From positions 2,727,451-2,791,450 of the forward strand of contig NC_071110.1 in the NCBI RefSeq assembly GCF_024256425.1: a stretch of DNA of 64,000 nucleotides, in the 5' to 3' direction. Numbering within the stretch: position 1 is the first letter of the stretch; every line of letters starts with the position of its first letter. This document shows positions 28,001 to 38,900 of the stretch, in pieces. The position numbers were made by a program. This DNA comes from Clarias gariepinus. Lineage: Eukaryota.

Positions 28001-31000
28001 GGAGGCGAGCTGGCGGTTTAGTAATATGCTTTTATTTAAGCACATAAAATAAACACAACATAGAACTTTACCAAAGGATAATACTATAAGGGCAACAAAA
28101 GCTAGACACCTGACTGTGCTCCAGTCAGGCTCTTTATAATCAACTTAATTACCTTACCTCGGTTCAGGTGAACTCCCACGTCACCTGACCGAGGTGCAGT
28201 CTGGGACATGCAGTCCAACTTAAACATAATACAAAAATAAAACAAACAAACCCAGGCGCTTTGGCGCCCTCTAGGGGTTAACCGTTACAGCTGTGGGCAT
28301 GATATGTATGTGCAAGAAGCCCCCCGCACTGGCTGTTAGTCCGCTGTCACAGTATGTAGCTCTTTGGTCCAGGGAAAATGGTGTTTTGTTTCACTGTGTA
28401 CTAAACTGTATATGGTTAAAATGACAATAAACACCTACTTGGTTCATTGATTTAATTGTTCATGCTTTCTTCTTATTTCTATTAAAATCCTATAAATTTT
28501 ATGGCTCTCTTTAATGTGCTGCAGAACAAATGTTTGCTTGTTTACCTTGTGGACGGATTTGCTTGACTTCTCTTTTCATCTCCGAGAGAGATTTCCGCAT
28601 TTCATCAAATGTGTGATGTAGATAGACAGTGTATATTGAGTCCTCACATCCAGGAGAAACACAGAGAGACGTGAAACTCTACAGAGAGGAAACACATCAT
28701 AGAGAAGGAGAAAAGTGTAGGAGAGGAACGAATGAATCTCAGACTGAATCAGACCAAAGACACACTTGTGATCTCAGACAGGAACATTTATTGTTGCTGT
28801 AATGAGCTTTTAGGAGGAAACTTTGTGAGGAACAGCGCCCTCTGTAGATCAGACAGTGAGTGTTACCTGGAGGAAGTGGATGTCATCGTGTGTGTGTGAA
28901 AGCTGCTCCAGCTCAGTGACTCTCCTCTTATAATCAGCAATCTCCTGCTCCAGTTGCTTCAGCAGTTGTTCAGCTCGACTCAGTTCAGCTTTCTCCTGAG
29001 CTCTGATCAGCTTCGTCACCTCCGAGCGCTTTTTCTCCATAAGGCTGATCAGCTCAGTAAAGATCCTCTCATTCTCATCTACTGCGGCCTGTGAACGCCT
29101 CTGTTAGGATACACAAACACATATATATTGTCACGGTAAACCGCACAATCATCATGAGTACTGCACAGCTCCGCTTCCCCAACGGACAAAGTTCAAGTTC
29201 ACGGTCACCGGCCTCATTCACTGTCTGATTTTTCTGCATGAGTGTATAAATAAAATTGCCTCGACCTTTGCTCACCACTACAATATGTTGTCCGCCTTTT
29301 CTCTCCCTGTGTCGCAGCCCGATGCTACATAGCTTTACAATATATATATATATAGCACCCTAAAGCTCACTACTATATATATATATATATACACTCTAAA
29401 CACCTAAATATATATACACAATATACACCTAAAGGATTATTAGGAACACCATACTAATACGGTGTTTGACCCCCTTTCCCTTCAGAACTGCCTTAATTCT
29501 ACGTGGCATTGATTCAACAAGGTGCTGAAAGCATTCTTTACAAATGTTGCGCCATATTGATAGGATAGATCTTGTAGTTGACGGAGATTTGTGGGATGCA
29601 CATCCAGGGCACGAAGCTCCCGTTCCACCACATCCCAAAGATGCTCTATTGGGTTGAGATCTGGTGACTGTGGGGCCCATTTTAGTACAGTGAACTCATT
29701 GTCATGTTCAAGAAACCAATTTAAAATGATTCGAGCTTTGTAACATGGTGCATTATCCTGCTGAAAGTAGCCATCAGAGGATGGTTACATGGTGTTCATA
29801 AAGGGATGGACATGGTCAGAAACAATGCTCAGGTAGCCCGTGGCATTTAAACCATGCCCAATTGGCACTAAGGGGCCTAAAGTGTGCCAAGAAAACATCC
29901 CCCACACCATTACACCACCACCACCAGCCTGCACAGTGGTAACAAGGCATGATGGATCCATGTTCTCATTCTGTTTACGTCAAATTCTGACTTTACCATT
30001 TAAATGTCTCAACAGAAATCGAGACTCATCAGACCAGGCAACATTTTTCCAGTCTTCAACTGTCCAATTTTGGTGAGCTCGTGCAAATTGTAGCCTCTTT
30101 TTCGGTTTTTGTAGTGAAGATGGGTGGTACCAGTCTTCTGCTGTTGTAGTCCATCCACCTCAGGGTTGTGCGTGTTGTGGCTTCACAAATGCTTTGTTAC
30201 AAACCTTGGTTGTAACGAATGGTTATTTCAGTCAAAGTTGCTCTTCTATCAGCTTGAATCAGTCGGCCCATTCTCCTCTGACCTTTGGTATCAACAAGGC
30301 ATTTTCACCCACAGGACTGCCGCATACTGGATGTTTTTTCCTTTTCACACCATTATTTGTAAACCATAAAAATGGTTGTGCATAAAAATCCCAGTAACTG
30401 AGCAGATTGTGAAATACTCAGACCGGCCCGTCTGGCACCAACAACCATGCCACGCTCGAAATTGCTTAAATCACCTTTCTTTCCCATTCTGACATTCAGT
30501 TTGGAGTTCAGGAGATTGTCTTGACCAGGACCACACCCCTAAATGCATTAAAGCAACTGCCATGTGATTGGTTGATTAGATAATTGCAATAATGAGAAAT
30601 TGAACAGGTGTTACTTATAATCCTTTAGGTGAGTGTATATACACAGTGGAACCTTGAATTGTAAGCACCATTAGTGTGCTTGTATATTAAAGCACTCATA
30701 TATCATAAGTAATGAAAACTCAGACAATTTGTTCCACAACCCAAAAATATTCACATAAAATAATTATTACAAAATGTAAAGTAAAAATAAAACAAATTAA
30801 CCTGCAATTTACCATATAAATAATGATGGCTGTAATAATTGAGAGAGGGGCACCAGTTTACCGATAGAGACTCTCACTCACACAGGCCCACGCGCGATAT
30901 ACACATGCAAACACACAAAAAAAAATGCTTTACGTGCACATACGTGGCCACAGTGTCATAGTAAACAGTATATTTGCCTATATGTGTGACACACACGCAC

Positions 31001-35951: not shown

Positions 35952-38900
35952 TTATCTATCTATAAGTAATTAAAATGCAGAAGACATTGCAGATAAATAG
36001 TCACTCACTCATCACCTATACCACTTTATCCTGTATACACAGTTGCGGGGGGCCTGGAACCTATCCCAGAAGTCTTAGAGCACAAGGCAAGTTGCCAATT
36101 CATCACTGGGCACACACACTTACACACACAATTATTCACACACTATGGGCAATTTTCGATCAACGCCAATTAGTCTAATCTGCATGTCTTTGGATGGTGA
36201 GGGGAATCCCGGATTACCCGGTGAAAAGCCGCCAAGCACAGGGAGAACATGCAAACTCCATGCACACAGAGATGGGGATTGAATCTGGCTAGGAATTGAA
36301 CCCAGACACTGGAGGAACCCAAGACGACAGTGCTAACCAGTAAGCCGCTGTTCTGCCCAGAAGGTGAATAGGATAAACAAAATAACTAAAGCATATTACT
36401 GTTTATAACATTTTGTTTAAAAAGAAGAAAAATTCAATAAATTATAAAAGTGCCCTTTTCCCCACTTAATCCCCTTCCCCTTAAAATGTCTGTGCATGTA
36501 CCTGCTGTAGATCTATTCTTTCCCTCTTTCAAGGATCACAGATTCACCTTTTCAGGCTCCTTCATATTTTGTTGCACTTCCCTTTTTTCCTAACCAATGG
36601 CGGCCTAACCATTTTTCCCAGCTATTTCATCCCTGACCAAAGATCAAGAGTCATGTCGTTTGAAGTGACAGAAAATGTATTTGTTTATTGGTTTGGAACT
36701 CCCAGTGTAGTACAGTGCAGAAGCCAATCAGAACGAGTTCTTTCTTAGTTGTCCCCACTTTAGTGTTATGCAATCACATTCCATGTCAAGTAGGTGTGGT
36801 TCATAAACAAAGGAAAATCTTATGTAAATACTAGGGATGGGAGTTACCTGGGATCTGATACCATACAACTTTAAACAAACTTACCAGATAATTTACTCCT
36901 TCCACACAGGATGCTGCCACAGATGTGTACATAGTTTAGAGTGTAGGATTATAAAGAAACTGCAACCTTTTACCGCCTCAAATGCAAACATATTTTTACA
37001 AAAAAAATAATTTCAAGAAATCAATTTAAAGTCATTGTGGCAATATATGAATTGCCCTACAAAAGAATCATGACACATAAATGAATCAATTATTAATTTA
37101 ATGGTTATGATCCCAATGACACATTTATTCAACTTTCTTAACACTTTCAATGTTAATAAATTTAAAAATTCACTTCACAGTCTTTCCATGAAAAGTTAAA
37201 ATGTTATTTTCTGTCCTAAAACTAACTAAATTACTTTAATGAATTAATTAGTAAATAAGTTAAATACTCTAATGGGAGTATTATATATAAGTTTTCTGAT
37301 ACATTCCGAAAAATCCCAGTTCTAACCTGTTTTTTAGTTCTTTCTGCTCTAGTTGAAATAATTTCATGGCCTCTGTGTTCATCCATCGTACACAAGTAAC
37401 AGATGAAGCTTTGGTCAGTACGACAGTAGATCTCGATCGCTTTGTCATGCTGAGAGCAGATCTCCTGGAGATCTGCACAGGCTTCCACTAACTTGTGCTT
37501 CTTAAAGGCAGGAGACTGATAGTGAGGTTGAAGATGATCTTCACAATAGGATGCCTGACACACCAGGCAGAAATTAACAGCTTTGCGTTTTCTTCTGTGC
37601 AGGAATCACACTCCACATCTCCAGGTCCAGCGTAACAGTGAGCAGGAGATGCAGCTTGGAGTTCAGCCTTATTTTGTTTCTCCACCATTTCAGCCAGCAT
37701 GTTGTTCCTTTGAAGAATAGGTCTTGGAATAAAAGTCTCTCTACACTGAGGACAGCTGTAGACAGCCTTCACATTCTTCTGATCCCAGAAGCCATTAATA
37801 CATGCTTTACAGTAATTGTGGCCATAGTGGAGAGTCACTGGATCCTCCAGAAGATCCAGACACACTGGACAGCTGAACTGATCCTAATCTACTGAGATAC
37901 TGGCTTCTGTCATTTCCTGCACTCACACACACTCACTCAGATTGCAAACTTAAACTAAGTTTTGTTTTCTTGGAAAAGAGCATCCGGGTTCTGTCTGTTT
38001 GTGTAGAGTGACAGAGACAGGTGTGGCTTCAAAAAGATGGAGCTATTCTGTAGTTAAACACTACGTGTCAAGAATTTATATAAATAATCTTCTCTATGAT
38101 TTATGATAATATTTTAATGAGTTAAATTAGGAACTGTTTAAATACATTTGGTTACTCATTCACTTATCTTCTATACCGCTCTATCCTGTATTCAGGGTAG
38201 CGGGGGGCCTAGAGCTCTAAACCAGGACACTTAGGGCACAAGGCGGAGTACACCTGGACAGGGTGTAACTTTTGACCGATACTTTTGGGCATTCTCAAAA
38301 ATCATTTAAAAATGTATCAAACATACAGTAATTATGTTGTTAGTTTCCCAGATGTTGGATAAATCATTCATATCCATACTTATTTTTTTTCTCCTTCGCC
38401 TTGGAATCAGCTCTCTCTAGGCCCTCGGCGGCAGGAGGCTACAGCATCACCCAGGAATTGAACCAGCAATTTCCAAATGACAAGGCAAGCACATTGCCAC
38501 TGCAACCCATGGGGGCGCAGAGTTCAATATCTTAACAACACATAAACAACATAACATTTACTAGATTAAAGCTTTATCCATTTGGAAGTTTACTTCTGAA
38601 TCAAACGACGGCAAGTTTTCTATTGGTCAATTCAGTCAGACATGTCAGTGGAGATTGTGTGTTGTGCGCCTTAAAGTGCATTATCAGTGTTGTCATCTTT
38701 CCTCTGCACATGTTCAAACCACATAATCTGGCCTCTCTAACTTTGTTCCAAGTACCCATACTGTCCCTCTAATATACTAATGTAGTTTATTGAGTCTTAG
38801 AATATACATTACTCACAAAAATATACATTACCCACAATGCAGTTTGTTTACCACCTGATACCAGTGCAGTGGTCATTTAACATTGTGCCATCCCTGCCTA

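Follow-up and report, generated by a model that had tools for sequence, protein, structure and literature searches.

A probable finTRIM-type pseudogene with transposon-filled introns in a tandem TRIM array of the catfish Clarias gariepinus

The stretch of Clarias gariepinus DNA analysed here (assembly GCF_024256425.1, contig NC_071110.1, positions 2,727,451 to 2,791,450; 64,000 nucleotides, referred to below as the window) contains three co-oriented copies of a TRIM gene of the fish-specific, antiviral type within 64 kb, which we call paralogs A, B and C. We focused on paralog B, the middle copy. An earlier note, made from the sequence alone, had described it as a finTRIM pseudogene whose exons are spread apart by nested transposon insertions. 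The coordinates of its exons, of the lesions in its first exon and of the mobile elements in its introns are collected in Table 1.

Paralog B lies on the minus strand and, as established by direct reading and by alignment to catfish proteins, consists of six exons that run from 37913 to 17224, a span of 20,690 bp. The matches of its TRIM exons are far above chance (tblastn E-values from 1e-94 to 1e-16), and the frame-repaired protein carries the Pfam domains zf-C3HC4_4, zf-B_box, TRIM_CC, PRY and SPRY, all above their gathering scores. All ten splice sites are canonical, with AG acceptors and GT donors. Exons 2 to 6 join in phase into one open frame of 349 codons that terminates at the normal stop of the family. 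This gene model differs from the earlier one in several places. Exons 2 and 3 had been located exactly (31675..31770 and 28867..29100), with their splice sites kept. Exon 1, given as 37327..37902, had the correct end and a start that fell eleven nucleotides inside the coding sequence, as the ATG is at 37913. For exon 4, given as 28536..28678, the claim of preserved splice sites stands, and the boundary at 28536 ran 10 nt into the intron (the true one is 28546). The B30.2 exon, given as 17227..17762, was rightly regarded as the next downstream exon of its kind; its start is at 17750, directly after the acceptor AG at 17752-17751 and 12 nt away from the position proposed. A 60-nt exon 5 (17957..18016), which is 90-95% identical to C. 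gariepinus paralogs at the protein level, had been overlooked, and the earlier model was therefore incomplete.

We considered how firmly the two ends of the gene belong together. The six exons and five introns of B are co-linear with those of paralog A, and because this co-linearity holds around every exon, including the flanks of intron 4, the B30.2 exon is part of B. The alternative is that two unrelated fragments lie side by side, exons 1-4 of one copy and exons 5-6 of a different duplicate. The mosaic identity to A (79-93% across exons) would fit this, as would the middle ~220 bp of A intron 4, which have no counterpart in B. However, the six exons share one orientation and matching phase, backbone sequence of intron 4 survives at either end, over 83 bp next to exon 4 and ~107 bp next to exon 5, and the surplus DNA of the intron is explained by identifiable insertions with target-site duplications (TSDs). 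The mosaic identity is explained by a gene-conversion tract described below. Furthermore, the exon order along the window is A exon 1, B exon 6, B exon 1, C exon 6; because exons 6 and 1 alternate, each exon 1 has exactly one downstream B30.2 exon. We regard the two-fragment origin as extremely unlikely.

Table 1. Positions of the exons, lesions and transposon-derived features of paralog B, and of the exons of paralog C, in the window.
Feature	Position	Strand	Description
Paralog B exon 1	37327..37913	-	587 nt vs 591 nt in A; RING, B-box 1, B-box 2; ATG at 37913; donor CAG/gt
Paralog B exon 2	31675..31770	-	96 nt; coiled coil; AG/GT intact
Paralog B exon 3	28867..29100	-	234 nt; coiled coil; AG/GT intact
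Paralog B exon 4	28546..28678	-	133 nt; AG/GT intact; GT donor 28545/28544
Paralog B exon 5	17957..18016	-	60 nt; AG/GT intact
Paralog B exon 6 (PRY/SPRY = B30.2)	17224..17750	-	524 coding nt + TAA stop (527 nt); acceptor AG 17752-17751
Premature stop	37884..37886	-	B codon 10 TAG; A has CAG
RING zinc-ligand change Cys30>Tyr	37824..37826	-	TGT>TAT; column Cys in 98% of 126 catfish paralogs
1-nt deletion, B-box 1	between 37598 and 37597	-	A codon 106; frameshift
In-frame 3-nt deletion	between 37467 and 37466	-	A codons 150-151; drops one Lys directly before B-box 2
Gene-conversion-like tract	28637..29052	-	9 differences in 416 bp vs A (98% identical)
5'/promoter-proximal region of B	37914..38033	-	Co-linear with A upstream; 83% identity over block including exon 1
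Ty3/Gypsy long terminal repeat (LTR) retrotransposon, B intron 4	18416..24067	+	Antisense to gene; gag, protease (PR), reverse transcriptase (RT), RNaseH, integrase (INT); 5-bp TSD ACTTC (18411-18415 / 24068-24072)
2.3-kb LTR-bounded non-autonomous element, B intron 4	25983..28289	-	TSD GCTGT (25978-25982 / 28290-28294); sense-oriented
Longest open reading frame (ORF) of 2.3-kb element	26151-27992		613 aa, Pro-rich
L2-like long interspersed element (LINE) ORF2 fragment, B intron 4	24079..24402	-	Abuts Gypsy insertion; tblastx
Tc1-like transposase copy, B intron 2	29380..30560	-	Nearly full-length, frame-broken
Insertion block, B intron 1	32093..36504	.	4.4 kb; splits older ~465-bp dispersed repeat; TAGAT duplicated at both junctions (about 32088-32092 / 36505-36509)
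Internally deleted Ty3/Gypsy fragment, B intron 1	32303..33235	+	Antisense; protease-region N-terminus fused to integrase SH3 (SH3_Tf2-1) + chromodomain
ORF of intron-1 Gypsy fragment	32333-33232		
Degenerate LINE-like reverse-transcriptase remnants, B intron 1	33900..35500	+	Weak evidence
Tc1/Sleeping-Beauty-type transposase helix-turn-helix (HTH) fragment, B intron 1	34310..34528	-	Nested inside LINE-like stretch, opposite strand
Paralog C exons 6, 5, 4	49155..49685, 50010..50069, 52231..52404	same orientation as A, B	100% match P0118

The damage to paralog B lies in exon 1. Lesions were called by aligning this exon to exon 1 of the intact paralog A, whose protein (P0005) is matched by exon 1 of B in two different frames (residues 1-115 and 108-197, tblastn). 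The stop codon after nine codons, which the earlier note had reported, is present at codon 10, and the reported B-box indels are a single-nucleotide deletion within B-box 1 and a 3-nt deletion before B-box 2. The lysine removed by the latter is conserved in 96% of catfish paralogs. A fourth lesion replaces a zinc-binding cysteine of the RING. None of the four sits in a homopolymer run. As the published C. gariepinus assemblies are HiFi-based, phased and polished (PMC11458897), four independent, non-homopolymeric lesions make a consensus or assembly error unlikely. A transcript of B would be read for nine codons before the stop, which would make it a substrate of nonsense-mediated decay, and with such early termination no RING/B-box E3 ligase would be made from B.

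Among 5.8 billion sequences, no protein is more than 81% identical to exons 2-6 of B, whereas paralogs A and C are both present at 100%. This indicates that neither C. gariepinus annotation, the RefSeq-type one or that of Haplotype-1 (Hap1), calls B coding. Together with the exon-1 lesions, this leads us to conclude that paralog B is probably a duplicated, unprocessed pseudogene that belongs to the finTRIM-type TRIM genes of teleosts, flanked by the intact tandem paralogs A and C.

Three observations weigh against this conclusion. The sequence comparison with Hap1 covers window positions 1..13922, so that an allele-specific null or an assembly error of B keeps some probability. The intact exons 2-6 and their lack of accelerated change are also compatible with a locus that still yields some product. 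Finally, all three indel and nonsense events fall in exon 1, which by our own arithmetic is only marginally non-random, (587/1637)^3 ~0.05.

The first of these points bears on the possibility that the exon-1 lesions are specific to one haplotype or assembly, either as a segregating null allele or, less likely, as consensus errors, and that B works in other haplotypes. For zebrafish ftr genes, frameshifts at early positions have been reported that are 'allelic in some cases' (PMC2657112). The C. gariepinus haplotypes also differ from each other: in the comparable part of the locus (1..13922) the window and Hap1 diverge by 0.02-1.6% and by a 416-bp indel, and the rest of the B coding sequence is preserved like that of intact paralogs. 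Against this stand the four independent lesions within 587 nt, which include a substitution-type stop and a non-homopolymer deletion, the HiFi-based and polished assembly, and the lack of a B protein in both the RefSeq-type and the Hap1 annotation. The interferon-stimulated response element (ISRE)-like motifs upstream of B are also degraded relative to A. We therefore consider haplotype-restricted lesions unlikely.

The ISRE-like motifs were found in the regions directly upstream of the A and B coding sequences and were read against the generally known ISRE consensus. Upstream of paralog A (window 3261-3420, minus strand) there is a canonical ISRE-like motif, AGTTTCTGTTTC, and a second motif, AGTTTCAGTTTG. 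In the corresponding region of paralog B (37914-38080, minus strand), the first motif is lost and AGTTTAAGTTTG occurs at the second. This degradation suggests decay of the B promoter.

Next, we investigated the age of the inactivation. The synonymous divergence (dS) between A and B is ~0.2-0.26, and the ratio of nonsynonymous to synonymous divergence (dN/dS) is 0.30 in exon 1, 0.39 in exons 2-5 and 0.85 in exon 6, which encodes the B30.2 domain. The B30.2 domain of zebrafish finTRIMs is reported to be under strong positive selection (van der Aa et al.; PMC2657112). With the family consensus as outgroup, 42 amino-acid replacements were derived in B and 37 in A (p = 0.65). At family-conserved columns B deviates in 10 of 219, A in 6 and C in 10, with a family median of 5 and a 95th percentile of 13. 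Relaxed constraint in B, which would appear as a dN/dS near 1 or as a surplus of lineage-specific replacements, was not found in these comparisons. As there is no relaxation of constraint and no excess amino-acid change, B was probably inactivated recently after a long functional life, and its inactivation would be recent relative to the A/B duplication. The earlier note saw in this locus an illustration of rapid birth-and-death turnover in the fish TRIM cluster. Given the near-equal replacement counts, the low dN/dS of exon 1 and the exchange of sequence with A, the locus illustrates such turnover only weakly.

The identity between A and B is uneven along the gene: 89% in exon 1, 79% in exon 2, 93% in exon 3, 88% in exon 4, 90% in exon 5 and 85% in exon 6. 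The two copies share a conversion-like tract, which begins a quarter of the way into exon 3, takes in the whole of intron 3 and ends 42 nt into exon 4. Within it, intron 3 is 99.5% identical between A and B, whereas the flanking exon sequence differs by 12-20%. The counterpart of the tract in A is found at window 1-431 and at 12899-13313 of the Hap1 sequence (L001, see below). This pattern suggests that A and B exchanged sequence through interlocus gene conversion or recombination.

The open frame downstream of exon 1 raises the question of whether B is alive in a remodelled form, as a coiled-coil and PRY/SPRY protein without RING and B-boxes. Such a protein would be 369 aa long and start at an internal ATG at 37386, with MDEHRGHEIISTRAERTKKQ preceding the part encoded by exons 2-6. 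The frame of 369 codons is open and its splice sites are intact despite intronic insertions of ~16 kb, replacements are not in excess in exons 2-6, and truncated coiled-coil/B30.2 models exist in other catfish. One of these, a predicted protein of Ameiurus melas (P0130, AMELA_G00106600, 378 aa), begins at the homologous methionine (MDDHRGH... compared with MDEHRGH... in B) and then runs through the coiled coil and B30.2 domain; B has no equivalent model. However, the internal ATG lies ~530 nt beyond the normal one and behind several out-of-frame ATGs, and a stop at codon 10 followed by five downstream introns is a classic target of nonsense-mediated decay. The annotation of C. gariepinus lists no protein of this kind, models like P0130 may be gene-caller rescues of pseudogenes, and the preservation of exons 2-6 departs from chance only marginally (~0.05). 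We consider expression of this product highly improbable. It is similarly doubtful that B plays a part in the cluster, whether its 369-aa protein were to heterodimerise with neighbouring finTRIMs through the coiled coil and modulate them, or the locus were to serve as a conversion reservoir for A. The shared 416-bp tract is a hint of the latter role.

Having concluded that B is most probably a pseudogene, we turned to the transposons in its introns. Intron lengths in A and B are 2033 and 5556 bp for intron 1, 130 and 2574 bp for intron 2, 187 and 188 bp for intron 3, 413 and 10529 bp for intron 4, and 484 and 206 bp for intron 5. The surplus length of B over A (20,690 vs 4,885 bp) is intronic transposon-derived DNA. 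The earlier statement that the exons are spread over about 20 kb by nested transposons is correct in outline; some of the insertions are nested. The elements were identified from whole-frame or stitched translations with Pfam and by tblastx comparison with further transposon copies of the window; Pfam searches of the individual short intronic ORFs of B mostly gave no match.

Intron 4 contains two LTR elements with perfect TSDs. The first is a structurally full-length Ty3/Gypsy element with Pfam domains Retrotrans_gag, RVT_1, RT_RNaseH, rve and SH3_Tf2-1. Its LTRs are 700 bp long, begin with TG and end with CA, and differ at 4 sites (0.57%), which indicates a recent, very young insertion. The earlier note had called it complete. 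This holds for its structure (LTRs, TSD and domains) but not for its coding capacity: pol is broken up across three or more reading frames, so this copy is not autonomous. The second is the 2.3-kb LTR unit, which was also recognised previously. One of its LTRs measures 157 bp, owing to a 180-bp deletion, and the other 337 bp; a polypurine tract adjoins the left LTR on the minus strand. The interior is a minisatellite of 67% GC with periods of 30, 36, 45 and 108 bp and has several open frames on either strand. Its longest ORF has no Pfam domain, and a homology search with it recovered one distant paralogue, P0161 (47% identity), an uncharacterised protein of C. gariepinus encoded on a different chromosome. 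Derivation of this element from the intergenic Gypsy copy described below was considered and rejected, as the two have only the terminal 10 nt (TGTCACGAAC) in common. Intron 4 additionally contains gag-like remnants.

The Tc1 remnant and the Gypsy fragment of the earlier description were found in introns 2 and 1, respectively. The Tc1-like copy matches DDE_3 above the cutoff (E = 3e-8) and HTH_Tnp_Tc3_2 below it (E = 6e-5), and shows tblastx homology to a Tc1 copy at 57023-57511. In intron 1, the ~465-bp dispersed repeat that is split by the insertion block also occurs in intron 1 of A, at the equivalent place just upstream of exon 2. Nested insertion is supported because the 4.4-kb block splits this older repeat and itself holds Gypsy, LINE-like and HTH fragments. 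Intron 1 yielded neither LTR pairs nor inverted repeats. As for the LINE fragments of the earlier note, a stitched peptide from intron 1 gave an RVT_1 match of 16 bits (E = 0.01), short of the cutoff of 29.6 bits, and a tblastx comparison of this stretch with the L2-like LINE of the window gave no match. A clearer LINE fragment lies in intron 4, at 24079..24402. The short interspersed elements (SINEs) that the earlier note listed were not recovered: in 17000..38600, ARAGORN reported 0 tRNA-like sequences and Rfam (E <= 1) no tRNA, 7SL, 5S or UnaL2. Short dispersed repeats do exist in this interval.

Could one of these insertions have killed paralog B by disrupting splicing or transcription, with the exon-1 lesions accumulating later? 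Intron 4 has grown from ~0.4 kb to 10.5 kb, and its sense-oriented LTR element could supply premature polyadenylation signals. However, no exon or splice site was struck, and the intact paralog C tolerates an intron of more than 11.6 kb with Tc1, LINE and a tandem duplication. In addition, the 4 differing sites in 700 of the Gypsy LTRs make at least that insertion very young. We judge death by transposon to be quite improbable; like the two-fragment origin, it is an unlikely account of the locus. The insertions thus probably did not cause the inactivation of B, and its transposon load would be incidental intron bloat of a kind tolerated in the cluster. Since exons and splice sites are untouched and C has its own transposon-filled intron, the spreading of exons is neither evidence for nor a cause of pseudogenisation. 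The earlier note had joined the two in one claim. The dead exon 1 stands, whereas the spreading does not serve as a sign of it, as all insertions are intronic; the exon spreading and the pseudogenisation of B are two independent facts.

To place paralog B among known TRIM families, we compared it with the zebrafish finTRIMs. These were described in 2009, with their clusters, six-exon structure, affinity to TRIM16 and TRIM25 and pseudogenes with early frameshifts, and the coding lengths of zebrafish ftr exons are 555-594, 96, 234, 154, 60 and ~545 nt (van der Aa et al. 2009, BMC Biol 7:7; PMC2657112). Paralog B resembles them in having a RING, two B-boxes, a coiled coil and B30.2, six exons with middle exons of 96, 234 and 60 nt, and a place in a tandem cluster. 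The differences lie in exon 4, which is 154 nt in zebrafish and 133 nt in catfish A and B (21 nt shorter), and in that the catfish paralogs (siluriform, not Danio) are named TRIM16-like or TRIM25-like by NCBI. From its domain order, six-exon layout and tandem expansion, B appears to be finTRIM-type, an assignment that describes architecture rather than phylogeny. Among the listed matches, a single B homologue is named 'finTRIM family, member 67 [Silurus asotus]' (64% identity). The best PDB sequence matches of B are human TRIM25 and TRIM16 (4cfg, 6flm, 7qs3, 6sjh): TRIM25 matches the RING-B-box-coiled-coil part at E = 7.5e-70, and TRIM16L/TRIM16 match the PRY/SPRY at ~1e-34. The human proteins are distant relatives and not orthologues, and their genes are single-copy, unlike the lineage-specific tandem array found here. 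The earlier note took the DNA to come from Danio. This was mistaken, as all close homologues come from siluriforms and two proteins of C. gariepinus are matched with 100% identity, and the comparisons it proposed with Danio ftr/btr genes and with other Danio strains do not apply. Close homologues of B number in the thousands; of the 120 listed, nearly all come from catfish, many of them from this chromosome.

The neighbours of B are intact or without known damage. Paralog A is identical (100%) to a C. gariepinus protein of 545 aa annotated as 'tripartite motif-containing protein 16-like' (P0005). Its exon 1 is located at window 2670..3260, with 197/197 residues identical, and its exons 2 and 3 also match this protein. 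The whole of paralog A is contained in a Hap1 sequence (L001; GCA_024256435.1 CM044214.1:2691354-2716238; PMC11458897), which is 98.4-99.98% identical to window 1..13922; the window thus represents a further assembly or haplotype of this species. In L001, A is intact, annotated as coding and spans 4,885 bp (L001 10001-14885), with exons of 591, 96, 234, 133, 60 and 521 nt, the last followed by the stop. A and B share exon structure, phases and the ~465-bp repeat of intron 1, whereas A is compact and intact and B has four lesions and a load of transposons. Window 4193-4608 is a 416-bp segment that is absent from Haplotype-1; it lies at the edge of an inverted-repeat block, has short dispersed repeats inside and is a haplotype insertion/deletion polymorphism. 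The block itself is 10.3 kb long (4611-14922) and bounded by inverted repeats of 1.4-1.5 kb that are 94.6-98.7% identical. It contains ORFs without Pfam domains, annotated in Hap1 as a 612-aa gene (L001 5708-8787), and an ORF with an integrase core (rva_4) at 12271-13161 on the minus strand, and may be a large DNA transposon.

Paralog C corresponds to the 558-aa C. gariepinus protein 'E3 ubiquitin/ISG15 ligase TRIM25-like' (P0118), with 100% identity over the exons inside the window. It belongs to the same family as B, has the same orientation and likewise a long transposon-filled intron; in contrast to B it has no known lesions, and its exon 4 is of the longer type. Its exons 1-3 fall outside the window, past position 64000, and its intron 3 must therefore be longer than 11.6 kb. 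This intron contains a 1,189-bp tandem duplication (52394-53582 / 53580-54768, 99.9% identical), a Tc1 copy (56984-57448) and, at 59144-62692, an L2-like LINE whose ORF1 is of the GDSL-esterase type. Between B and C, an UnaL2 LINE 3' element was detected by Rfam at 48197-48250 on the minus strand (57.7 bits, above the gathering score). Another Ty3/Gypsy element, at 42989-47456, is intergenic, with LTRs that are 99.7% identical and a 5-bp TSD ATCAC. It has an uninterrupted 1129-aa PR-RT-RNaseH-INT-chromodomain ORF with an ATG-initiated pol at 43322-46045, and is a young copy that is possibly still active.

The death of paralog B is of an ordinary and already well-known kind, of which it is a fresh instance in a species other than zebrafish. 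Beyond annotation its significance is small: one probably recently inactivated copy in a finTRIM-type array of a catfish. The tract shared by A and B provides a small concrete example of what may be concerted exchange in an immune multigene family. Introns swollen by transposons are compatible with intact genes next door, and so do not mark a gene as dead. If B were a segregating null allele, it could serve as a marker for copy-number or functional variation of antiviral TRIMs in a farmed species.

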